This document shows positions 1 to 63,455 of a stretch of 64,000 bases of DNA, piece after piece. The DNA comes from a bacterium (GTDB lineage: Bacteria > Patescibacteriota > Minisyncoccia > Phycocordibacterales > VMGT01): NCBI GenBank assembly GCA_030697645.1, contig JAUYPI010000003.1, forward strand, positions 318-64,317. Reading direction: 5' to 3'. Under the pieces are notes generated by a model. It was given only the letters and a program-made list of their open reading frames with translations, was not told the origin of the DNA and ran no database searches. The position numbers were made by a program, and so were the translations under genes. Numbering within the stretch: position 1 is the stretch's first letter; every line of letters starts with the position of its first letter.

Positions 1-585
1 GACTTGAAAATTCCGTATTTTACTTTTTGGGGGACTTCGCTGGATAATGTTACCAAAAGGCCGTCGTCGGAAGTTAAATTTCTGCTGAATCTTTTTGAAC
101 GGGATTTTAAAAAACTGATTAAAGATAAAAAAATTTATCAAAATGGCGTGAAGGTTAATGTTTTTGGCCGCTGGGAGAAACTATTTCCTGAAAAAACCAA
201 AAAGGCCATAAAAGAGGCAATTGAAAAAACTAAAAATCATAAAAACTGTCAACTGACTTTTTTACTGGCTTATAGCGGCGTTGACGAAATGGCAAGCGCA
301 ATCCAGAGGATTGCTAAAATAAAAAATCAAAATGCAAAAATCAAAATTGATGAGAAATTGATTAAAAACAATCTTTGGACAAAGGATTTACCGGCCGTTG
401 ATTTAATGATTCGCACCGGCGGTGAAAGGCAAGGGTGGTCGCATTTTTCCAGCGGTTTGATGATGTGGGACATGGCCGACGCGCAATTTTATTTCACCAA
501 AAATCTTTTTCCGGATTTCTCGGTGGCGGAATTTAAAAAAGTTATAGCGCAATACAGCCAAACCAAGAGGAAAATGGGAGCATAA
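1..585 (+). CDS. uppS: isoprenyl transferase / undecaprenyl-diphosphate synthase, 5'-truncated at window edge
   Basis: Frame is open from position 1. The C-terminal UPPS signatures LLAYSG, IRTGGExR and WQ..FYF are present. Very AT-rich coding. Confidence 0.7.
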   Translation, partial: DLKIPYFTFWGTSLDNVTKRPSSEVKFLLNLFERDFKKLIKDKKIYQNGVKVNVFGRWEKLFPEKTKKAIKEAIEKTKNHKNCQLTFLLAYSGVDEMASAIQRIAKIKNQNAKIKIDEKLIKNNLWTKDLPAVDLMIRTGGERQGWSHFSSGLMMWDMADAQFYFTKNLFPDFSVAEFKKVIAQYSQTKRKMGA

Positions 586-661
586 AGCAGAGAGTCAGTT
601 TGACAAACTTTCCCGATCCTCTATCATTTATTATTAGAAACCTTGAAAGGGGGTGGGGACA

Positions 662-889
662 ATGAGAAGGATTCTCATCAAGGTTTGGCAGGGGGAGTTA
701 AGTCCCAAACAAGCTCTGAAGGAGCTTGAAAAAATGGGATTTAAATTTGCTGCCGGTAAAGAAAAGAGGGGGCTGGAGGTACTTACCGCCTTAAAAAAAA
801 AGGAGGTCAATGTTAATGAAGCCGAAGAGGAGATTGCGCTTCTTGAATGTGTTGGGTGCCAGAGAGAAAAGGATCTCTGCCAAATCTAG
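662..889 (+). CDS. hypothetical small protein (75 aa)
   Basis: ATG preceded by a GAAAGGGGGTGG RBS. TTGACA-17-TATCAT promoter-like pair at ~604-632. No recognisable domain. Confidence 0.35.
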   Translation: MRRILIKVWQGELSPKQALKELEKMGFKFAAGKEKRGLEVLTALKKKEVNVNEAEEEIALLECVGCQREKDLCQI

Positions 890-963
890 AATCTCCCTCA
901 AAAAGCCCGCCGAAATCTTTTAAAAAAATAAAAGAAAGTAAGCGGGCTCACCTATTTAGGTAG

Positions 964-1037
964 GCCGCGGTAGCTTAATGGTAAAGCAGGTGCCTGAAGA
1001 GCATCTGAAGGCAGTTCGATTCTGCCCCGCGGCACCA
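964..1037 (+). tRNA. tRNA-Phe (anticodon GAA)
   Basis: Hand-folded cloverleaf: acceptor GCCGCGG/CCGCGGC, D-arm TAGC..GCTA-like, anticodon stem GGTGC/GCATC with loop CTGAAGA, T-arm GGCAG-TTCGATT-CTGCC, discriminator A and encoded CCA. Confidence 0.85.
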
Positions 1038-1179
1038 CAAACGAACTGAAAGGTTTTTTAGAAGCCCAAAGGTGGGACGCGCGAAGCGCGTCCCACTGAT
1101 TTCCCCCCATTTTTCCAAACGAATTCGGAGTCCCGCCTTCGGCGGGACGGACTGTTTTTTCGCCAAGAAGCAGGTTCGA
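1038..1179. repeat. inverted-repeat copy 1 (3' flank of tRNA-Phe). Contains two terminator-like hairpins, GGGACGCGCGAAGCGCGTCCC and GTCCCGCCTTCGGCGGGAC followed by T6.
   Basis: Reverse complement is 108/108 identical to 2758-2865 and ~75% identical over the remaining ~34 bp. Explains the duplicated peptides in minus-strand ORFs 952..1200 and 975..1166. Confidence 0.8.
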
Positions 1180-1262
1180 AATCAGAAGCAATTTTGACAT
1201 AGTATTTGCTTTGAATACAAAAAGAATTTTTGTCCTTTTTTCAAAAGTGGTATACTAACTTT

Positions 1263-1358
1263 GCGCACAATTATTATTAGTAAATCAGCAGAAATGGTTG
1301 TGCTAGAACAATTTTGATTTACGTTGAAATTGTGCGCCTAGTACAACCATTTCTGCTT
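1263..1358 (+). promoter_or_regulatory. interleaved inverted repeats immediately upstream of the recombinase start (candidate recombinase binding/crossover or regulatory site)
   Basis: GCGCACAATT (1263-1272) ... AATTGTGCGC (1331-1340). CAGAAATGGTTGTGCTAG (1290-1308) ... CTAGTACAACCATTTCTG (1341-1358). A TGGTATACT -10-like box sits at ~1247. Confidence 0.35.
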
Positions 1359-1368
1359 TTGTAAATAT

Positions 1369-3102
1369 ATGTCACAAAAATTCTTTTTGTATGCTCGCAA
1401 GAGTACCGATGTCGAGGACAAGCAAGTTTTGAGCATTGATGCGCAAATTACGGAATTGCGCGCTTTCGCCAAAAATGAAAAGTTAGAAATCGTTGAGGAG
1501 TTTGTAGAAAAGCGTACGGCGAAAATTCCAGGTCGTCCCATTTTTGGCGAAATGATGAGGCGAATAGAGAAAGGTGAAGTGTCTGGGATTATCAGTTGGC
1601 ATCCCGATCGTTTGGCGCGCAATTCTGTGGACGGCGGACAGATTGTGTACTTTCTCGACATCGGAAACCTTGCGAGCCTCAAATTCCCTAGCCATTGGTT
1701 TGAAAACACGCCACAGGGCAAATTCTCGCTGTCTATGGCATTCGTACAAAGCAAATACTATGTTGATTCTCTTTCCGAGAACACGAAGCGTGGACTTCGC
1801 CAAAAAGTGAGAATGGGGATATTCCCAAGCCAAGCGCCAGTGGGTTATCTGAACGACAGTAGAACAAAGACGATAGTGGTGGAAAAGAAAAAATCTCGTA
1901 TCGTGCGCTTGGCTTTTGAGAAATACACGAAAGGAAATATGAGACTGGAAGATGTTTCAAACTTTTTGGCGAAGAACGGAATCAGTACGCGTTCCGGAAA
2001 GAGAATCTCAAAAACTAGAGTGTCTTTCATTTTGTCCAATCCGTTCTATGTCGGACTGTTTAACTACGCAAAAGAATTGCACGAAGGAAAACACGAGCCA
2101 ATCATTTCAAAGAAACTTTTTGATGAAGCACAAGAAATTTTGAAATCTCGCGGACAACCAGAGCGTAAACCACAAAACGAACCTCAACCTTTTTGCGGAC
2201 TTATTTCTTGTGCTTCTTGTGGAATGATGATAACTGGCGAACACAAATTCAAACGGCAGAAAAATGGAAATGTCCACGAGTATATCTACTATCACTGCAC
2301 AAAAAAGCGAAAAGTTTTTAAGTGTCCCGAATCTGCCGTTAGAGAAAAAGAATTGGATCGCCAGTTATCATCCCTAATCAAAAAAGTTTCTTTGCCCAAA
2401 GACTGGGCGGAGGAATTATTGAAAATGGCGAACAATGACCACAAAAATTCCGCCCAGTCTTTGACTGCTTGTGTGAAAGAGAAAGAGGAAAAGATTTCTT
2501 CTTTGTCGAAAAGGTTAGAGCGACTTCTTTCGGGTTATCTCGACCAAGATATTGAAAAGGAAATTTATCGTGTTGAAAAAGGAAAATTGATTTTGCAAAA
2601 GAAGTCGCTCGAAGAAGAAATCACTAATCTTTCACACAAGCAGAATGATTGGCTCGAACCGTTTACCGAGTGGCTGAAAGACGCACAATCATTGGACAAA
2701 ATTGCTTCTGATGATGACCTTTTTGCGAAAAAGGTCAAAGCCAAAGAAATCTTTGGCTCGAACCTGCTTCTTGGCGAAAAAACAGTCCGTCCCGCCGAAG
2801 GCGGGACTCCGAATTCGTTTGGAAAAATGGGGGGAAATCAGTGGGACGCGCTTCGCGCGTCCCACTTTCTGGCTTCCAAAAAGCCGTTTAGTTCGTTTGT
2901 GGTGCCGGAGGTGGGACTCGAACCCACAAGCCTTTCAGCATGCGATTTTGAGTCGCACGTGTTTGCCAATTTCACCACTCCGGCGCGAGGTTTTTTGCGG
3001 GCAGATCTACCAATGCCGCCACCCCGGCGCTGTGCAATGTACGGATTAGTGGTTTCAGTATATATGCTCCGGTGTATTTTTCAAACTCTCTATTCAAAGT
3101 AA
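1369..3102 (+). CDS. large serine recombinase (resolvase catalytic domain + recombinase domain + zinc ribbon + coiled coil)
   Basis: N-terminal YARKSTD..Q catalytic-serine motif. Zinc ribbon CGLISCASCG...YYHCTKK..KC. ORF runs with no stop through the right inverted repeat and antisense across tRNA-Leu, so the last ~115 codons are probably read-through or a fusion. Confidence 0.8.
   Translation: MSQKFFLYARKSTDVEDKQVLSIDAQITELRAFAKNEKLEIVEEFVEKRTAKIPGRPIFGEMMRRIEKGEVSGIISWHPDRLARNSVDGGQIVYFLDIGNLASLKFPSHWFENTPQGKFSLSMAFVQSKYYVDSLSENTKRGLRQKVRMGIFPSQAPVGYLNDSRTKTIVVEKKKSRIVRLAFEKYTKGNMRLEDVSNFLAKNGISTRSGKRISKTRVSFILSNPFYVGLFNYAKELHEGKHEPIISKKLFDEAQEILKSRGQPERKPQNEPQPFCGLISCASCGMMITGEHKFKRQKNGNVHEYIYYHCTKKRKVFKCPESAVREKELDRQLSSLIKKVSLPKDWAEELLKMANNDHKNSAQSLTACVKEKEEKISSLSKRLERLLSGYLDQDIEKEIYRVEKGKLILQKKSLEEEITNLSHKQNDWLEPFTEWLKDAQSLDKIASDDDLFAKKVKAKEIFGSNLLLGEKTVRPAEGGTPNSFGKMGGNQWDALRASHFLASKKPFSSFVVPEVGLEPTSLSACDFESHVFANFTTPARGFLRADLPMPPPRRCAMYGLVVSVYMLRCIFQTLYSK
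2758..2899. repeat. inverted-repeat copy 2 (3' flank of tRNA-Leu), partner of 1038-1179
   Basis: Direct sequence comparison; 108-bp perfect identity. Confidence 0.8.
2900..2984 (-). tRNA. tRNA-Leu (anticodon CAA), class II with long variable arm
   Basis: Minus-strand fold: acceptor GCCGGAG/CTCCGGC, 3-bp D stem, anticodon stem TGCGA/TCGCA with loop CTCAAAA, long variable arm, T-arm GTGGG-TTCGAGT-CCCAC, CCA encoded. Confidence 0.8.
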
Positions 3103-15308: not shown

Positions 15309-16850
15309 TTAGGTTGTAGATTTTAGCTTCGGAACGCGTAAATAAAATATCGACCCTTTGCCGGGCTCCGATTCAAGGAGAATTTTCGCCCCGATTTTCT
15401 CCGCGAGCATTGAGGCGACATATAGGCCCAACCCAGTGCCATCGGGCTTGAATTTTTTGGCATTGGACGCGCGGTAAAATTTTTCAAAGATGCGCCCCTG
15501 CTCGTCGTTGGGTATCCCGATGCCGCTGTCTTTCACGGAAAATACCACACTCCCTGTTTCTTCGGTGACGTCAAAAAATATATCCTGCCCCCGCTCGGAA
15601 TAATTGATTGCGTTTACGATAAACGTCTCAAGAATGGAGCGCAGCATCTCCGCGTCAGTCTCGACAACGGTCGTGGCGAGATTTTTCACGTCCGCGTGAA
15701 GCCGCACCCCTCTCTGCTCGGCGACAGGCGCCGTCGCGAGAGAAACGTCTCGAGCGAGGCGCGCAAGGGAAATCGCTTCTGTTTTCATCGCGACGTCGCC
15801 GCCCTCGATACGTAAGGCGTTCAGCATGTCAAAGACGATTTTGAGCGCGCGCTCGTTCAATTGGTAGATTTGATCAAGATATTCTTGCTGTTTTTGATTT
15901 ACAGTACCGAGTATCTTTCGATCGAGCGTTTCAACGAACCACTTGATGCCGGAGAGCGGCGTTCGCAGTTGGTGCGAGGCAAGAGCAAGAAATTCAGTTT
16001 TCATGCGATCAATTTCCTTTTCTTTGGTAATATCGCGAAATACTTCAACGGCGCCTATAATTTTTCCGTCTAAAGTGACGGGGGTGACAATACCCGACGC
16101 AGGAAACCTGGTTTTATCTTTGCGAATATAATACCAACTACTACTACTACTACTAGTAGTAGTAGTTCCCACCAATGCCTGCGTTATTGCTCTTTCTTGA
16201 GGCGGCACCAAATTCCCGGCTTCATCTTCTTGTGGCACTACTTCAACCATTCGTTTCCCCGCGATTTCCTTTTCACCCCAGCCGGTGAGCGCTTCAAAAG
16301 CTTTACTGATGAAAAGAATATTTCCTTCCTTATCGACTGCCACAAGTCCCTCGCCGATGCCTGACAAAATTGCCTCATCTTTGGCTTTGGTATTATCCAG
16401 CGCTTCTTTTTCAACTTGAAGGTCTTCGAAGACGTTTTTGGCGGCCGTCCTTGCATTTTCCAAATCCTCCTCTATCTGCTTTCGGTCAGTGATATTTTGC
16501 AACACTGCCACAAAAAATCCTTTTTGGGGACTATACGCCGAAACCAAAAACCACATCGATAACGGTTTAACGTATATTTCGAACCTCTTTGATTTTCCAG
16601 TTAAATAAAGCCGGCCGTAAATCTCAAACAATTCAGGATTAGACGCGCGAATTCCCGGAATTATCTCTGATATTTTCTTTCCTGTAACATTTTTCAATCC
16701 CGTCAGATTTTCATAATTTTTATTAACCCTTAAATGGATCCAATCTATCAGGTTTCCTTGCATATCAAAAATCATTTGGCAGTAAGCCAAACCGTCAAGC
16801 ATATTATCAAAAAGCGACTCATAAAAGACGCTGGGATCTTCGGGTTTCAT
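15309..16850 (-). CDS. PAS-domain sensor histidine kinase
   Basis: HisKA H-box (ASHQLRTPL) and HATPase G-boxes (GTGLGLYV). Lower GC. Contains the (CTA)5(GTA)4 triplet palindrome at 16136-16165. Confidence 0.85.
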   Translation of the reverse strand: MKPEDPSVFYESLFDNMLDGLAYCQMIFDMQGNLIDWIHLRVNKNYENLTGLKNVTGKKISEIIPGIRASNPELFEIYGRLYLTGKSKRFEIYVKPLSMWFLVSAYSPQKGFFVAVLQNITDRKQIEEDLENARTAAKNVFEDLQVEKEALDNTKAKDEAILSGIGEGLVAVDKEGNILFISKAFEALTGWGEKEIAGKRMVEVVPQEDEAGNLVPPQERAITQALVGTTTTSSSSSSWYYIRKDKTRFPASGIVTPVTLDGKIIGAVEVFRDITKEKEIDRMKTEFLALASHQLRTPLSGIKWFVETLDRKILGTVNQKQQEYLDQIYQLNERALKIVFDMLNALRIEGGDVAMKTEAISLARLARDVSLATAPVAEQRGVRLHADVKNLATTVVETDAEMLRSILETFIVNAINYSERGQDIFFDVTEETGSVVFSVKDSGIGIPNDEQGRIFEKFYRASNAKKFKPDGTGLGLYVASMLAEKIGAKILLESEPGKGSIFYLRVPKLKSTT

Positions 16851-16921
16851 TTTTTGTCGGCCATTTTTATGATTACCATTGTGATTTTTCCGGTTCCATT
16901 CTTGCCGTTGCCGTTTTTAAC

Positions 16922-17485
16922 TCACTGCCGCTTCAGAATTTCAATTTCTTTTTTAAGCTCCGCCATTTTCAATTCTCTACCAACCATACTTTTATTTGTC
17001 TTCTCTAATTCTTTAATTTTATCAGTAAGTTCTTCTGTTTGTTCTGCCACTTTTTTCTCCAGTTCATTTGTATAATCGTCTAATTTTATTTCAAGCTCCT
17101 TTCTGACAGTTATGTCTTCAATGGCTAATATGATCAATTGCACCGAATCTATCTGCATGGCGTTGAGCAGCATTATTTTTTGCCCGATTGTTTCAAACTC
17201 ATGCCTAACCTCATAATCTTTTACAACTTTTTTATTAGGCAAAATGTCTTCCAGCAATTTTTTCAATTTAGGAATATTCCATTGGCCATTTCCTAATCCA
17301 TAAAGAGATTTGGCCTCTGTTTGTTTTTGCGAGACCTGAAAGGTTTGGTAAAAAACTGGGTTTGCCGAAATCACCACAAGATTAGAGTCAAGAATTAAGA
17401 ATGCCTCTCTGGAAACATCTACCAGTGTTTTCATGTAATGCAAGGCAAGTTCTTTGTTGTCTAATATATTTTTATTATTTTCCAT
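16922..17485 (-). CDS. PAS domain plus coiled-coil protein (possibly the detached N-terminal part of the downstream kinase)
   Basis: PAS fold followed by a heptad-rich C-terminus. The ORF track starts at TTG 17503; ATG at 17485 is preferred. Confidence 0.55.
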   Translation of the reverse strand: MENNKNILDNKELALHYMKTLVDVSREAFLILDSNLVVISANPVFYQTFQVSQKQTEAKSLYGLGNGQWNIPKLKKLLEDILPNKKVVKDYEVRHEFETIGQKIMLLNAMQIDSVQLIILAIEDITVRKELEIKLDDYTNELEKKVAEQTEELTDKIKELEKTNKSMVGRELKMAELKKEIEILKRQ

Positions 17486-17761
17486 ATTTTTAGTTTTAAT
17501 CAAACAATTCCTCGCAGCTCTGCTGCGAGGTCGTACAGAACTCGAACGAAGTCACAGCCAGAAAAAAATTATGAGCGAAGCTCCTTTAGATACCTCGGAG
17601 CAGAGCTCCGAGGTAGTTCATTTTACTTTTTAGCTAAGTTTATTTCGACCTTTATGCCCCCGTTAGAAGTACCGGCTTTCTATTTTCCAATAGGGCGATA
17701 AAACAAAAACACGCGGCCAAAAAGCAGCATGTAAAAACTTTCCTCTAAACGGAGGATCAGA

Positions 17762-17786
17762 GAGAGAGAGAGAGAGAGAGAGACGA
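17762..17786. repeat. (GA)12 dinucleotide microsatellite
   Basis: Seen directly. Confidence 0.9.
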
Positions 17787-18045
17787 AACCCGTGCCAAAT
17801 TTTGATATCCAGTGAGCATAAGTTTATGATACCATCAACTTGAAATGTTACCCACATCATTGTGGATAAAATCTTTATTCCCCGTGTTATACGGCGGGTC
17901 AATGTAGATGACATCCATCTTGCCTTTGTGGGTATAGTTGAGCACCGAGAGGGCGTGGTAATTCAGTTATACCGTCGCAGCGTGCTGCACGGTTCGTGAT
18001 TGTTACCGTATATTTCACGAAGAAGATAAAAGAAGGTGAAATCGT

Positions 18046-58752: not shown

Positions 58753-61700
58753 ATGATGGTACGACTCTACCGTCATGTCATCGGAGAGTGTCCCGCTTTT
58801 GAGGATTGTTTTTACATCGACTTCCTCTCGGCTCCTAATACGCAACAGACCGCGCTCATGAGATGGCTCCTCACCGAGCCACTCACCACAGTCTCCGAGG
58901 AGTCTTGCTTCGGTGATCTTGATGTCGTCGAGATCGGTCCGCGGCTCTCTGCCGAGACACCGTTCTCTTCAAACGCGGTTGCAATCTGTGTCTCAATGGG
59001 GCTTTCCGTGCGGCGAATCGAGCGGTCGGTTCGTTATTGTTACGGCGATGGCCTGGGCATATCGCGAACGCCAAATCGGGACGAGGTGCTGCAGCAACAC
59101 CTTGATCGCATGAGAGAGACGGTCTATCCGTCGACACTCACGACGTTTGACTCATGTCTCAAACCGGAGCCGGTGAGCTTCGTTCAGCTGCTTGAAGGCG
59201 AGGATGCCTTGCGAGACGCGAACAAAAAGCTCGGCCTCGGCATGGATGACTGGGATATCGTCTACTACAGAAAGCTGTTCCAGCGCCTCGGACGCAATCC
59301 GACCGACGTTGAGCTGTTCCAGATCGGCAATGCAAACTCCGAACATAGCAGGCACTGGTTCTTCCGTGGTATCCAGGCGATCGACGGCAAGGAAATGCCG
59401 GAGAGCCTCATGGATGTCGTGCGGGAGCCGTGGCAGCGCAGTGCAGGAAATAGCATCACCGCGTTCAAGGACAACGCCGGCGTGATACGGGGTGTCGAAG
59501 TTTTAGCGTTTGCTCCTACCAAACAGGGGCAACCGTCCCCGTTTGGGACCGTCGAGGTGCTCCAGCATATCACAGCGACGGCGGAGACACACAACCATCC
59601 GACGCTCATCGCGCCATTCCCTGGTGCCGAGACCGGTACCGGCGGGCGGATCCGCGACAATCGGGCGGTGGGTCGAGGCGGTCTTGTTCACGCGGGGCTT
59701 GCGGGCTACTCTGTGGGTAATCTGCATATCCCCGGATTCGAGATCCCGGGGGAGGCGGCACGCGGCGAAGACAGTCGCTCTGCGGCGACCCCGCTTGAGA
59801 TCCTCATTCGGGGTAGCGACGGCATCTCTGACTACGGTAATAAAATCGGTGAGCCACTCATCGGAGGGTTTACGCGATCGTTCGGCCAGATGTTCAATCG
59901 TGAACGTCGCGAATTCAGAAAACCGGTTCTCTACAGTGCCGGTTTCGGACGCATCAGAGATATGCACGTCGCCAAGCAGCAGCCGGAGAGGGGTATGCTT
60001 ATCGTGCGCATCGGTGGCCCAGCATACCGGATCGGTGTTGGGGGCGGCAGTGCCTCAAGCATGATCCACGGACATCAAGATGAGGAGCTCGACTTCAAGT
60101 CGGTACAGCGCGGTAATGCCGAAATGGAAAACAGGGCCAATCGGGTCATCCAAGCGTGCGCCGAAATGGGCACGGTCAATCCGATTGAGAGCATCCACGA
60201 CCAAGGAGCCGGTGGCCCCAGCAATGTCCTCACGGAGTTGATGGAACCGGCTGGCGGCACGGTCGACATCCGCAAGATCATCGTGGGCGACACAACCATG
60301 TCCGTTCTCGAGATTTGGGTTGCTGAATATCAAGAGGGGTACGGCTTACTCGTGCGACCGGAGAATATCGAGGTGTTCCAGTCGATCTGTACGCGCGAGC
60401 GCGTGAACTGCGAAGTGTTGGGCCTTATCACCGGCGACGGCACTGTTGTCGTCGAGGATTCCGCCGATGGCACGACGCCGGTTAATCTCTCCCTCAAAGA
60501 AATCCTGGGGGAGTTGCCCCGGAAGCGGTTTGAATCGAATCGCCCGCATGTGGCATTGCAGTCACTCGTGATCCCGGAAGGGCTCACGGTGGACGAAGCT
60601 CTGCGGCTGGTGTTTTTGCTTCCTCACGTCGGTTCCAAGGGCTTCTTGGTTCGGAAAGTGGATCGCTCGGTCACGGGCTTGGTGGCGAGGCAGCAGTGCT
60701 GTGGGCCGACCCAAGTGCCGGTCGCTGACGCGGCAGTTACCGCTGATGGCTATTTTGGTTTCACCGGAGCGGCATCCGCCCTCGGCGAGGCGCCGATCAA
60801 GATGCTCATTGATCCGAAGAAAGGCGCTCGCATGGCGGTCGCAGAAATGCTCACCAACCTCGCAAGTGTCCGCATCACCACACTCTCGGACGTGAAGTGC
60901 CGCGCCAACTGGATGTGGGCGGCAAAGCAACCGGGGGAAGGCGCGCTGCTCTATGAAGCCGCCGTCGCAATGCGAGACTTCATGGTTCGACTCGGTATCG
61001 CTAGCGACGGAGGCAAGGATAGTCTTTCTATGGAGACGGTAGTCGGGAAAAGTCTCGTGATTTCGCCTGGTGAGTTGGTCGTCATGGGCTACGCACCGGT
61101 ACCAGACGTGAGAAAGGTGGTCACTCCCGATTTTAAGGGAAGTGGCTGTCTTGGCTACGTCAACCTCTCTGGCTCGTACTCGCGGCTCGGTGGTTCTGCG
61201 CTCGCCGAGGTGCTCGGGCAGGTGGGAGACGAGACTCCGGACGTCGACGCATCGTATCTCGCAGCTGCTTTCGCGGCTGTGCAGGAGCTGATCGAGAAAG
61301 GTCTGATTACCGCGTACCACGATGTGAGTGACGGCGGACTCATCACTGCCGTTACGGAAATGTGCATGGCGGGCAACCGCGGCGCGCGTCTTCAGTGCAA
61401 GGAGGGCATAGATCCCCTTTCAGTGCTTTTTTGCGAAGAGGCGGGTATGCTGTTTGAGTTCGAAGCGAAGTCAGAGGGAGCAATCACGCGCGTGACGCAT
61501 ACTCATGGCGTGCATTATGATCAAATTGGGACAGTCGGTTCCAGCCCTGGAGGCAGCCTGCACATCGAGAGAGGTCGAACCACATTGCTTGATCGCAGTG
61601 TGGTGGACCTCAGAAAGTGGTGGGAAGCGACGAGCACTGCGCTCGAGAAGCTCCAGGCCAATCGAGAAACGGTAGAAGCCGAGAGCAGAAGTCATGGAGA

Positions 61701-62565
61701 GGTGAGGACTGTCGAATATCACCTCTCCTTCATACCGAAAGCCCGGAGCGTGCGCACGACGCACCGCCCAAAGGTTGCGATTTTGCGTGAGGAAGGAACC
61801 AATGGCGATCGGGAGATGGCCGCGGCCTGTTTCACCGTCGGCTTCGAGCCGTGGGACATCACGATGAGCGATCTCTTCGACGGAAGGGTAACGACGCTCG
61901 ACACTATGCGCGGCGTTATTTTCCCCGGCGGGTTTTCGTTCGCAGATGTTTTCGGAAGCGCGAAGGGCTGGGCTGGCCCAATCCGATTCAATCCAAGCGT
62001 GAGCGAAATCTTTGACCGGTTCTATGACCGGCCGGATACCTTCTCGCTCGGCGTCTGCAATGGCTGCCAGTTAATGGCGAACATTGGCTGGTTGCCATGG
62101 AAAGGCATTTCGGAGGACGCACAGCCTCGATTCGTTCACAATACATCAGGGCGTTTCGAGTCTCGGTGGGCGGCGGTGAAGGTGTTGCCGAGCCCGTCGA
62201 TTTTGATGCGTGGCATGGAAGATTCGGTGCTCGGCATTCATGTCGCACACGGCGAAGGGCGGATGTTATTTCCGGATCCGCGCATCATGGGGGAAATCCG
62301 AGAGCGGCAACTTGTCCCGCTTGTCTATGTCGATGTAGAAGGCAAAGCCACCGAAGAGTATCCATACGATCCAAACGGATCGCCCTTAGGATGGACGGCT
62401 CTCTCGTCGCCGGACGGCAGGCATCTTGCGATGATGCCGCACCCAGAGCGCAGCTTCCTAACGTGGCAATGGCCGTGGATGCCGGAGAAGTGGCGTACCA
62501 CGCTCAAGGCCTCGCCGTGGCTCGAGATGTTCCAGAACGCCTGCGACTGGTGCTCTAAGGGCTAG
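58753..62565 (+). CDS. purL: phosphoribosylformylglycinamidine synthase, large single-chain type
   Basis: 1270 aa. AIRS-like domains plus C-terminal class I glutamine amidotransferase (LGVCNGCQLM). AAGGAGG RBS. Confidence 0.9.
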   Translation: MMVRLYRHVIGECPAFEDCFYIDFLSAPNTQQTALMRWLLTEPLTTVSEESCFGDLDVVEIGPRLSAETPFSSNAVAICVSMGLSVRRIERSVRYCYGDGLGISRTPNRDEVLQQHLDRMRETVYPSTLTTFDSCLKPEPVSFVQLLEGEDALRDANKKLGLGMDDWDIVYYRKLFQRLGRNPTDVELFQIGNANSEHSRHWFFRGIQAIDGKEMPESLMDVVREPWQRSAGNSITAFKDNAGVIRGVEVLAFAPTKQGQPSPFGTVEVLQHITATAETHNHPTLIAPFPGAETGTGGRIRDNRAVGRGGLVHAGLAGYSVGNLHIPGFEIPGEAARGEDSRSAATPLEILIRGSDGISDYGNKIGEPLIGGFTRSFGQMFNRERREFRKPVLYSAGFGRIRDMHVAKQQPERGMLIVRIGGPAYRIGVGGGSASSMIHGHQDEELDFKSVQRGNAEMENRANRVIQACAEMGTVNPIESIHDQGAGGPSNVLTELMEPAGGTVDIRKIIVGDTTMSVLEIWVAEYQEGYGLLVRPENIEVFQSICTRERVNCEVLGLITGDGTVVVEDSADGTTPVNLSLKEILGELPRKRFESNRPHVALQSLVIPEGLTVDEALRLVFLLPHVGSKGFLVRKVDRSVTGLVARQQCCGPTQVPVADAAVTADGYFGFTGAASALGEAPIKMLIDPKKGARMAVAEMLTNLASVRITTLSDVKCRANWMWAAKQPGEGALLYEAAVAMRDFMVRLGIASDGGKDSLSMETVVGKSLVISPGELVVMGYAPVPDVRKVVTPDFKGSGCLGYVNLSGSYSRLGGSALAEVLGQVGDETPDVDASYLAAAFAAVQELIEKGLITAYHDVSDGGLITAVTEMCMAGNRGARLQCKEGIDPLSVLFCEEAGMLFEFEAKSEGAITRVTHTHGVHYDQIGTVGSSPGGSLHIERGRTTLLDRSVVDLRKWWEATSTALEKLQANRETVEAESRSHGEVRTVEYHLSFIPKARSVRTTHRPKVAILREEGTNGDREMAAACFTVGFEPWDITMSDLFDGRVTTLDTMRGVIFPGGFSFADVFGSAKGWAGPIRFNPSVSEIFDRFYDRPDTFSLGVCNGCQLMANIGWLPWKGISEDAQPRFVHNTSGRFESRWAAVKVLPSPSILMRGMEDSVLGIHVAHGEGRMLFPDPRIMGEIRERQLVPLVYVDVEGKATEEYPYDPNGSPLGWTALSSPDGRHLAMMPHPERSFLTWQWPWMPEKWRTTLKASPWLEMFQNACDWCSKG

Positions 62566-62621: not shown

Positions 62622-62745
62622 CTCTGTAATCACAGGAAGGTGGAACGCGCGTAGGGCCTTTTCATTTGACGTATTTTTGGTAGAGTAGAGTGAGTCGAAG
62701 TAGATATTGTGAAGATGCCCCAGACGCAGAGTGGTGGGCAACATT

Positions 62746-62786
62746 GCCGAAGTAACTCAGTTGGTAGAGCAATGCTTTCAATAAAC
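62746..62786 (+). pseudogene. tRNA 5' fragment (acceptor + D arm + 5' anticodon stem only)
   Basis: GCCGAAGTAACTCAGTTGGTAGAGCAATGCTTTCAATAA. The first 24 nt are near-identical to tRNA-Thr(CGT) at 63280; then it diverges into AT-rich DNA. Confidence 0.5.
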
Positions 62787-62800
62787 AACCACTTCTAATA

Positions 62801-62828
62801 TTGACACTGGTCGTAAGTCCTATATACT
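62801..62828 (+). promoter_or_regulatory. sigma70-like promoter TTGACA-16-TATACT for the HNH gene
   Basis: Consensus hexamers 7 bp upstream of ATG 62835. Confidence 0.5.
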
Positions 62829-62834
62829 GGATTT

Positions 62835-63272
62835 ATGCCAATGTCTAAAAAACATAGAACGAGTTGTCTTGACTGCGGTAAAGAAACAGCTCGTGCAGGA
62901 TATAAATACTGCAGCAATGCCTGCCAAATTGAATATCAACATAAAGCTTGTATCAAAAAATGGAAAGACGGAGAAGAGAGTGGGTTACAAGGTCTCGGTA
63001 TCGTTTCAGGGTATATTAAAAGATATTTGCGGAGAAAGTTTGGAAATAGGTGTTGCTTATGCGGATGGGCAGAGATTAATCCTAAAACCAAGCAGGTTCC
63101 CCTAGTTGCTGACCACATTGACGGTAATTGGCGTAATAATATTGAAAGTAATCTTCGCCTACTTTGCCCCAATTGTGATTCGCTGACTCCTACATATGCA
63201 GGATTAAATAGGGGGAACGGCAGGAAAGGTCGAGCACTGAGCAAAAGAGCGAAAGAAGGTCGTTGTTGTTAG
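62835..63272 (+). CDS. HNH endonuclease (free-standing, homing-endonuclease-like), AT-rich
   Basis: N-terminal CxxC...CxxC zinc knuckle. HNH core CCLCGW...ADHIDGNWRNN...LRLLCPNCD. Confidence 0.75.
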   Translation: MPMSKKHRTSCLDCGKETARAGYKYCSNACQIEYQHKACIKKWKDGEESGLQGLGIVSGYIKRYLRRKFGNRCCLCGWAEINPKTKQVPLVADHIDGNWRNNIESNLRLLCPNCDSLTPTYAGLNRGNGRKGRALSKRAKEGRCC

Positions 63273-63279
63273 CGAATAA

Positions 63280-63355
63280 GCCGGAGTAACTCAGTTGGTA
63301 GAGTAGCTGCTTCGTAAGCAGCAAGTCGGGAGTTCGAGCCTCCCCTCCGGCTCCA
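63280..63355 (+). tRNA. tRNA-Thr (anticodon CGT)
   Basis: GCCGGAG...anticodon stem GCTGC/GCAGC, loop TTCGTAA, T-arm GGGAG-TTCGAGC-CTCCC, CCA. Confidence 0.85.
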
Positions 63356-63384
63356 CAATTAGACCTGTCCGTTTTTGACCAACG

Positions 63385-63455
63385 AATCAATGGGCGGCAC
63401 GAAGTGCCGCCCATTGATTGATAACATACCCTGGGGCTCTGCCCCAGGGTACTCG
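63385..63455. terminator. two hairpins between convergent tRNA-Thr and the MFS gene
   Basis: CAATGGGCGGCACGAAGTGCCGCCCATTG and CCCTGGGGCTCTGCCCCAGGG. Confidence 0.5.

Follow-up and report, generated by a model that had tools for sequence, protein, structure and literature searches.

What is a gene for a small HNH nuclease doing between a piece of a tRNA gene and a complete tRNA-Thr(CGT) gene? The question is raised by a locus toward the end of a 64,000-nt stretch of Patescibacteria DNA (hereafter, the window; contig JAUYPI010000003.1 of GenBank assembly GCA_030697645.1). A first interpretation, made from the sequence of the window with no database searches (the sequence-only reading), took it for a free-standing homing-endonuclease insertion at a tRNA gene. 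Comparison with other genomes agrees with this: the layout recurs in unrelated contexts, and sites without the insertion exist. The window locus is probably one copy of a selfish, free-standing HNH homing-endonuclease cassette found at Patescibacteria tRNA-Thr(CGT) genes. As delimited here, the cassette has four parts: a tRNA-Thr 5' half; a leader bearing a promoter; a gene for a zinc-knuckle/HNH nuclease of ~150 amino acids (aa); and a complete tRNA-Thr(CGT), which the nuclease open reading frame (ORF) abuts or overlaps.

The upstream tRNA piece is present in the window and does extend to the anticodon loop (..CTTTC|AATAAAC..), taking in the 5' strand of the acceptor stem, the D arm, and the 5' strand of the anticodon stem. 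Its tRNA-like part is 34 nt, however, not the 41 nt first given, since this is the length that a tRNA-Thr profile aligns to tRNA positions 1-33 (Table 1). The near-exact match to the first 24 nt of the downstream tRNA-Thr(CGT) stands: 62746-62769 and 63280-63303 form a direct repeat with 23/24 (96%) identity, and two such 24-nt matches were found in none of 100 shuffles of the window. The AT-rich block of ~0.5 kb was also correctly described, with a GC content of 0.41 across 62780-63279 vs. 0.56-0.63 in the flanks; the HNH gene is the sole coding content of the 0.53-kb block. The tRNA after the HNH stop codon is complete by both ARAGORN and Rfam, as stated in the sequence-only reading, with a gap of 7 nt rather than 8.

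Table 1. Features of the HNH locus, in window coordinates.
Feature	Position	Strand	Basis
tRNA-Thr 5' half pseudo-fragment	62746..62779	+	nhmmer, tRNA-Thr profile positions 1-33, E 7.7e-8
Conserved cassette leader with sigma-70-type promoter	62780..62834	+	promoter scan, column conservation
Intact 145-aa HNH endonuclease ORF	62835..63272	+	PHROGs, PADLOC, residue conservation
Complete tRNA-Thr(CGT), type 1 (GCCGGAGTAACTCAG...)	63280..63355	+	ARAGORN; Rfam, 66.9 bits
Perfect 16-bp hairpin directly 3' of the tRNA; cassette membership uncertain	63385..63419	+	

The predicted protein matches HNH endonuclease families in a PHROGs search (E 1e-15 to 3e-16), one of which covers both of its domains, and the best PADLOC model is “homing endonuclease” (2.4e-11); the Pfam HNH_3 match is under threshold (15.7 vs. 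24.8 bits). Four N-terminal cysteines (C11, C14, C26, and C30, as two CxxC pairs making up a Cys4 zinc knuckle) are invariant in 24 relatives, as are the residues of a zinc-type HNH motif (C73, C76, D93-H94, N106, C111, N113, and C114), and the protein has a basic C-terminal tail. The 145-aa HNH protein with an N-terminal zinc knuckle read from the ORF alone is therefore confirmed, and by its motifs the protein is a member of the HNH (His-Me finger) superfamily, of the Cys4 zinc type. The sole solved structure with a sequence match is that of I-HmuI (PDB 1u3e), by profile (E 0.22) and through the motif DH.DGN..NN...NLR; a PDB search with the single window sequence gave no match. An AlphaFold model is of low confidence (pLDDT 65), and Foldseek returned only generic HNH nucleases, at E > 0.07.

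Distribution of the cassette and its linkage to tRNA-Thr

A protein search found 1,949 clusters with 65-87% identity to the window ORF. Among the best 120 (75-87% identical), every specific source name is Patescibacteria or candidate phyla radiation (CPR), and one is just “bacterium.” In a 50%-identity library, the clade collapses to essentially one representative, within an HNH family of >11,000 proteins, most of which are longer at the N terminus. A scan of GTDB species representatives yielded 66 loci, nearly all labelled Patescibacteria, the remaining few having generic or doubtful labels; with three further contexts and the window itself, there are 69 distinct loci (individual loci and contexts are designated below by L numbers). 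Hosts thus span essentially the entire phylum. The window and each of the 66 genome loci lie on cellular contigs and are not phage-borne.

The genes flanking these loci are mostly unrelated from one to the next. Sixty-six of the 69 include enough downstream DNA to be tested for linkage, and 65 of these have a tRNA-Thr(CGT) at -44 to +240 nt from the end of the ORF. In the usual arrangement, the ORF overlaps the tRNA by 10 or 26 nt because it ends on a TAG inside the tRNA, putting the stop codon at tRNA nt 8-10 or 24-26. The sole exception to the linkage is L033, in which a complete tRNA-Thr(CGT) is directly 5' of the HNH gene and prfB is 3' of it.

The leader is also conserved. The last ~55-60 nt before the ATG follow the pattern ..TTCAAT.TAC.ACCACTT.TAA.TTTGAC..TGGTCG.TAA.T....TATACT..AT.T-ATG, and across 43 loci conservation reaches at least 90% in the TTGAC, TGGT, and TA...T columns, which take in the -35 and -10 elements. 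This supports the promoter proposed in the sequence-only reading, TTGACA (62801-62806) and TATACT (62823-62828) with a 16-nt spacer, which matches the consensus at 11 of 12 positions. With no Rfam intron or ribozyme match, its own conserved promoter, and a complete tRNA downstream, the HNH gene is free-standing. Only 6 nt separate the end of the -10 element from the ATG, and a Shine-Dalgarno sequence is lacking, so that the HNH mRNA is likely leaderless. No promoter-like site was seen between the HNH promoter and the downstream tRNA, for which reason the window tRNA-Thr(CGT) is probably co-transcribed from the HNH promoter. On the 5' side of the fragment, TTGACG at 62666 lacks a properly spaced -10, and no native promoter is claimed there.

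The window leader also contains two interleaved inverted repeats (S1, 62778-62783 and 62799-62804; S2, 62786-62792 and 62807-62813). A conserved leader RNA structure, possibly a pseudoknot, is not claimed: pairing is found in 71.3% of cells, vs. 69.3% in shuffles. In the minimum free energy fold of the window leader (z = -3.5) the AUG is sequestered, and by eye this pairing is not conserved at other loci. The resemblance of the leader half-site AGTGGTYG to the tRNA D loop (AGTGGTAG) is at most suggestive of an operator for an I-TevI-like autorepressor, since sharing of 6-7-mers is expected by chance.

Homologues are also found in phages. A tblastn search of 50,697 phage records found matches in 175, 32 of them full-length at 39-47% identity, and nine contexts were sampled. 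In five of the nine, tRNA-Thr adjoins the HNH gene. The gene is directly 5' of tRNA-Thr(TGT) in Enterococcus phage iF6 (L175, directly 5' or overlapping), T5-like Salmonella phage MET_P1_137_112 (L179, a full-length homologue 5 nt 5' of the tRNA), and Synechococcus phage DSL-LC03 (L183, overlapping); it is directly 3' of tRNA-Thr in Streptomyces phage Forrest (L176, with Thr tgt, cgt, and ggt) and Escherichia coli jumbo phage WPEC5 (L177). Spilled (L178) and RN05-S (L182) have it between other tRNAs in arrays, and in CB7 (L181) and cr53_1 (L180) what follows the ORF matches a tRNA only weakly (E 0.004 and 0.04). Cyanophage DSL-LC03 has the layout of the window: a 5' half extending to the anticodon loop, a 9-bp inverted repeat reaching to the ATG, the HNH gene, and tRNA-Thr. 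Where homologues lie in phage tRNA arrays, their annotation is HNH or homing endonuclease. Because the phage contexts share it, association with tRNAs, and with tRNA-Thr in particular, characterises the protein family as a whole, beyond its Patescibacteria clade. The likeness to phage tRNA regions noted from the window sequence is thus borne out, with the nearest phage homologues in such regions and mostly beside tRNA-Thr.

Occupied and empty sites and the origin of the tRNA 5' half

Sites with and without the cassette can be compared directly for L001 and L015, both with the gene order DivIC-tRNAGly(CCC)-mnmA-nifU-nifS / HNH-tRNA-Thr(CGT) / hyp-rplJ-rplL-tRNAVal. Empty sites were sought on contigs with rplJ proteins 81-93% identical to that of L001, and four species (L157; L159-L164; L165-L168; L169) were found to have the same order without the HNH gene. 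Each empty site has one intact tRNA-Thr(CGT) in a gap of 190-272 nt, compared to 739 nt in L001, and no paralogue. In alignment, a conserved promoter-like stretch leads up to the native tRNA start, and the L001 fragment begins at exactly that point; the L001 downstream tRNA is identical to the tRNA of empty L157, and the right flank is unchanged beyond it. L015 has as its closest relative the empty L159 (left flank 89% identical) and has both a tRNA of type 2 and 67 nt of foreign sequence, from which it follows that its resident tRNA has been replaced. In a tree of 2.5 kb of left flank, the two occupied loci are in separate clades, each with an empty sister. The HNH gene is therefore present or absent among species with 82-89% identical flanks, and presence/absence at a fixed site, to judge by these alignments, is the signature of a homing element.

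Three classes of sequence are found 5' of the leader: a tRNA 5' half, a complete tRNA-Thr(GGT), or nothing recognisable. Halves ending at or before profile position 33 are present in the window, L001, L009, L010, L013, L014, L017, L023, L030, L032, L035, and L072. At least 12 loci have a fragment at a distance of 42-69 nt upstream of the ATG, and many more have weaker, decayed vestiges; wherever there is a fragment, the tRNA/leader junction has the same position. Several loci combine a fragment of one tRNA-Thr type with a downstream tRNA of another (for example, GCCACCTTAGCTCAG.. 5' of GCCGGAGTAACTCAG..), and so the fragment cannot be the 5' exon of that tRNA. A 3' half after the downstream tRNA, which would be a sign of simple insertion of an HNH gene plus tRNA, was found in none of the fragment-bearing loci.

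The window fragment looks chimeric by sequence. Its nt 1-24, which include an ACTC D stem, are of the local tRNA type and match the 5' end of the L069 tRNA exactly, while nt 25-34 (CAATGCTTTC) are of a type found in the fragments of other loci; GAGC at fragment positions 22-25 together with the local-type ACTC D stem leaves an A10.C25 mismatch. The fragments of four loci (the window, L001, L009, and L030) share the derived bases GAGCAATG.CTTC in place of the GAGTAGCTGTTTC of their local tRNAs, and L001 and L009 have the unusual junction CAACCTGC in common. A crossover in the D-loop region is the trace that would be expected from break repair off an occupied donor; later gene conversion inside the locus would give the same chimeric pattern. 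The sequence-only reading had proposed a partial target duplication, and this holds with one amendment: in its 3' part, the fragment seems to be carried along by the element, and not simply to have been left behind by the target.

Could the fragment instead be a decayed resident tandem tRNA-Thr paralogue, unrelated to any insertion, with the HNH gene merely lying between tandem genes of which the upstream one has since lost its 3' half? The D-arm sequence of the fragments also fits tRNA-Thr(GGT), and a complete tRNA-Thr(GGT) is directly 5' of the HNH gene in ~17 loci, as is the complete tRNA-Thr(CGT) in L033. The empty sites of the L001/L015 synteny, however, hold a single tRNA-Thr(CGT), yet L001 and L015 have the fragment at the native tRNA start. 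Because these empty sites have one intact tRNA-Thr(CGT) and no paralogue, the sequence-only reading's own counter-explanation, a decayed paralogous tRNA, does not hold for this synteny group. The constancy of the tRNA/leader junction in at least 12 loci, the sharing of GAGCAATG.CTTC by fragments in unrelated contexts, and the existence of a cyanophage with the same layout also argue against it, and a decayed paralogue is considered unlikely.

Some further tRNA arrangements were observed at these loci. The upstream tRNA-Thr(GGT) is split by an intron in eight of them (L040, L043, L052, L056, L060, L066, L067, and L068), after the anticodon (..TTGGT|) and by an insert of ~160-200 nt. These split genes are ~250-620 nt 5' of the HNH start and are missed by ARAGORN; the split agrees with the “divergent group I introns” at position 36/37 of Patescibacteria tRNA-Thr(GGU) (PMC13011429). 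L034 has only a 3' tRNA half, at the contig start. L029 has a tRNA within a tRNA (601-790): its HNH-linked tRNA-Thr(CGT), GCCGAAGTAGCTCAGTTGGTAGA | GGCAGCCGATTCGTAATCGG...CTCCGGCTCC, is broken at nt 23/24 by an insert of ~110 nt, which holds a complete tRNA-Thr(CGT) of another type between GC-rich inverted repeats (CCTGCCCGCC.. / ..GGCAGGCGG).

The HNH genes themselves are under strong purifying selection, with ratios of nonsynonymous to synonymous substitution rates (dN/dS) of 0.04-0.13 overall and of 0.05-0.13 for the window ORF vs. its relatives, and have 80-88% nucleotide identity between loci without detectable flank similarity. Identity at fourfold sites is 0.63-0.67 within the window's clade, compared to ~0.30 expected at random, and is saturated toward distant clades. 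Their GC content follows that of the host (r = 0.78) and is generally lower. The window gene is the strongest outlier, with a GC content at third codon positions (GC3) of 0.33 vs. 0.68 for purL and 0.57-0.74 for most long host ORFs, which argues for the comparatively recent arrival of the window cassette from a low-GC donor. Degraded copies are also found: there are in-frame stop codons in L057, L067, and L071, which are still beside the tRNA, and only the last 53-61 HNH residues remain in L073 (3001-3183) and L074 (3001-3159), still adjoining tRNA-Thr(CGT). The overall pattern resembles the cycle of invasion, decay, and loss of homing endonuclease genes.

Near-universal linkage to one tRNA, strong purifying selection, partial adjustment of GC content to the host, and, in one syntenic pair, an HNH synonymous divergence (dS) equal to that of the host could also be accounted for if the HNH gene were not mobile but a domesticated gene of the host, passed on vertically and functionally tied to tRNA-Thr(CGT), with which it might be co-transcribed in the role of a regulator or processing factor. 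This seems improbable in view of the gene's presence and absence among species with such similar flanks, the different linked tRNA types and right junctions of L001 and L015, the strongly foreign composition of the window copy, the pseudogenised and truncated copies, and the annotation of the phage tRNA-array homologues as HNH or homing endonucleases.

Least probable by far is a degenerate group I (or other) intron with an endonuclease ORF in a tRNA anticodon loop, the fragment being its 5' exon, which the sequence-only reading had already argued against: the fragment does end in the anticodon loop, the classical intron site, and group I introns, some of them with HNH ORFs, are known from tRNA genes of Patescibacteria (PMC13011429), but Rfam at E <= 1 gives tRNA only and no ribozyme (RF00028-type) match, the non-coding space is ~55 nt before the ORF and at most 7 nt after it, the downstream tRNA is complete, and the anticodon-stem strand of the fragment (elsewhere also its acceptor strand) cannot pair with the downstream 3' half. 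An element inserted at a tRNA site by an integrase was likewise rejected, since the block encodes HNH only and the duplicated part is the 5' half, upstream, not the 3' part.

Possible mode of spread

If the locus is a homing cassette, the nuclease would nick or cut an unoccupied tRNA-Thr gene. An occupied copy would then be the template for repair of the break, its 5' half supplying homology on the left and its full tRNA homology on the right. The cassette would thereby be copied in and a working tRNA kept, with the resident tRNA allele sometimes replaced; the chimeric window fragment and the tRNA replacement in L015 may be indirect traces of such cleavage and one-way gene conversion. Transcription of the tRNA would from then on start at the promoter of the cassette. 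The stop codon of most relatives is inside the tRNA, where maturation by RNase P would clip the mRNA, leaving a non-stop nuclease message and keeping expression low. Recombination between the two direct tRNA repeats could delete the cassette precisely, restoring an empty site.

A stronger version, that the tRNA 5' half is no debris but a selected, functional, portable left homology arm with which, together with the linked tRNA, the HNH gene homes into the tRNA-Thr genes of very distant genomes, both Patescibacteria and phages, and overwrites their tRNA alleles, is put forward only tentatively, and is rather doubtful on present evidence. If true, the cassette would amount to a gene drive of natural origin that brings its own homology arms, is widespread in a phylum with streamlined genomes, and is plausibly spread by DNA uptake.

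Several results weigh against a homing cassette or some part of its proposed cycle. Clipping by RNase P is not applicable to the window copy as it stands, because 7 nt lie between its stop codon and the tRNA. Any target wholly inside the tRNA would still be present in the intact downstream copy. That HNH GC content tracks host GC content implies long residence in many lineages. Between L001 and L015, HNH dS (0.56) is equal to nifS dS (0.54), which makes ancestral presence with four precise losses as compatible with the data as two gains; precise loss is easy to imagine, the fragment and tRNA being direct repeats. No close relative of the HNH gene was found in IMG/VR. Empty tRNA-Thr sites in relatives, which the sequence-only reading had suggested looking for, were found for L001 and L015 but not for the window's own lineage: tRNA-Thr and HNH are absent downstream of purL in all of 80 metagenome loci with purL relatives (57-85% identity), and the sole near-identical contigs are 100% identical to the window. 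As to any such target in the downstream tRNA, the cassette might escape its own nuclease by being an I-HmuI-like nickase, by autorepression via the inverted repeat at the -35, or by preference for certain alleles. I-HmuI nicks both intron-plus and intron-minus alleles, and such behaviour would remove the need for self-immunity.

Contigs start (L010, L029, L034, L042) or end (L031, L035, L036, L076) within ~160 nt of the HNH gene at several loci. L076, a contig end in GCA_034376905.1, matches the window with 100% identity up to the fifth base of the HNH ORF, where it breaks off. It seems that the cassette behaves as an inter-genome repeat and that assemblies break at it.

A few observations concern the surroundings of the window locus. 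A third copy of TTGGTAGAGTAG, identical to tRNA nt 16-27 (63295-63306), is at 62677-62688, 58 nt upstream of the fragment start; it may be a remnant of an older insertion cycle, or due to chance (~0.05 copies expected in the region). The ~70 nt just 3' of the tRNA, including the hairpin in Table 1, are ~80% identical between the window (63356-63450) and L072 (3516-3600), whose HNH genes are only 65% identical and whose remaining flanks are unrelated. The L072 version of the hairpin has G.U-type changes at the base of the stem, and the window has a second hairpin, of 10 bp, at 63428-63450. Two other stretches of the window are AT-rich (1-3000 and 16000-18000, GC 0.39-0.44 vs. 0.53 for the whole window), the first of which holds tRNA-Phe (964-1037) and tRNA-Leu (2900-2984, minus strand). 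Upstream of the cassette, 58753-62565 encodes a large single-chain PurL of 1,270 aa, with metagenome relatives at 57-85% identity and a cluster-mate labelled Patescibacteria. Purine biosynthesis genes are uncommon in Patescibacteria.

Comparison with known systems

Free-standing homing endonucleases of tRNA regions have so far been known from a few model phages. A close parallel in organization is SegB of phage T4, also a free-standing endonuclease gene among tRNA genes, which recognises a tRNA motif and spreads both itself and tRNA genes (PMC2330249). Like most relatives of the window cassette, its ORF ends at a tRNA, and tRNA maturation removes the SegB stop codon and limits expression (PMC2330249). 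SegB, however, is a phage-borne GIY-YIG enzyme, where the cassette encodes an HNH protein on a cellular chromosome; its target is the T-psi-C motif of several tRNAs, where the cassette is tied to one tRNA species; and no tRNA 5' half arm is described for it. The F-TflI, -II, and -IV endonucleases of phage T5 resemble the cassette in being HNH ORFs in a tRNA gene cluster, and control of their expression by processing of tRNA transcripts has been proposed, according to the passages that deal with them (PMC2330249). T5 hegA has the HNH core (H40) in common with the window protein. The F-Tfl enzymes differ in being phage-borne and only distantly related over most of their length, and in those same passages no partial tRNA duplication is reported.

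I-HmuI, the HNH nickase of phage SPO1, has the same DH.DGN..NN...NLR catalytic motif as the window protein, although the match is weak; it differs in being encoded in an intron and in how its DNA-binding part is built. Some organellar homing-endonuclease ORFs bring with them a replacement for part of the host gene: at Allomyces atp6, such an insertion has reportedly also left a displaced partial copy beside an intact, functional one, so that the gene stays active, in work said to be that of Paquin et al. in 1994; there, by the same account, the gene is a mitochondrial protein gene, the endonuclease families are different, and it is the 3' end that is duplicated, vs. the tRNA 5' half here.

Within Patescibacteria, the known tRNA introns share with the cassette a phylum, tRNA targets, the anticodon-loop position, and HNH proteins (PMC13011429). 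In that survey, HNH ORFs were found only inside tRNA-Asn group I introns, and the divergent introns in tRNA-Thr(GGU) had no ORFs. These elements are self-splicing and their HNH proteins match PF01844, whereas the cassette has no ribozyme, targets tRNA-Thr(CGT), and leaves the downstream tRNA complete. A description of the cassette was found neither in a full-text literature search nor in the tRNA-intron survey (PMC13011429).

One compact HNH lineage is tied to tRNA-Thr across phages of four phyla (Cyanobacteria, Firmicutes, Actinobacteria, and Proteobacteria) and has also colonised many chromosomes of Patescibacteria, a phylum whose genomes are in other respects extremely streamlined. Its layout, with a 5' half, a nuclease, and a tRNA in that order, suggests a simple way of entering an RNA gene without an intron and without destroying it, and of replacing tRNA alleles between species. 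There are practical consequences as well: the cassette seems to break metagenome assemblies at tRNA-Thr(CGT), its tRNA pseudo-fragments can confuse annotation, and a nuclease of ~150 aa, possibly with a tRNA-gene-specific target, could be of use for biochemical study. Functionally comparable to SegB and the F-Tfl enzymes of phages, the cassette differs from them in being chromosomal in a cellular phylum, in its attachment to a single tRNA species, in the 5' half that flanks it, and in being extremely widespread.

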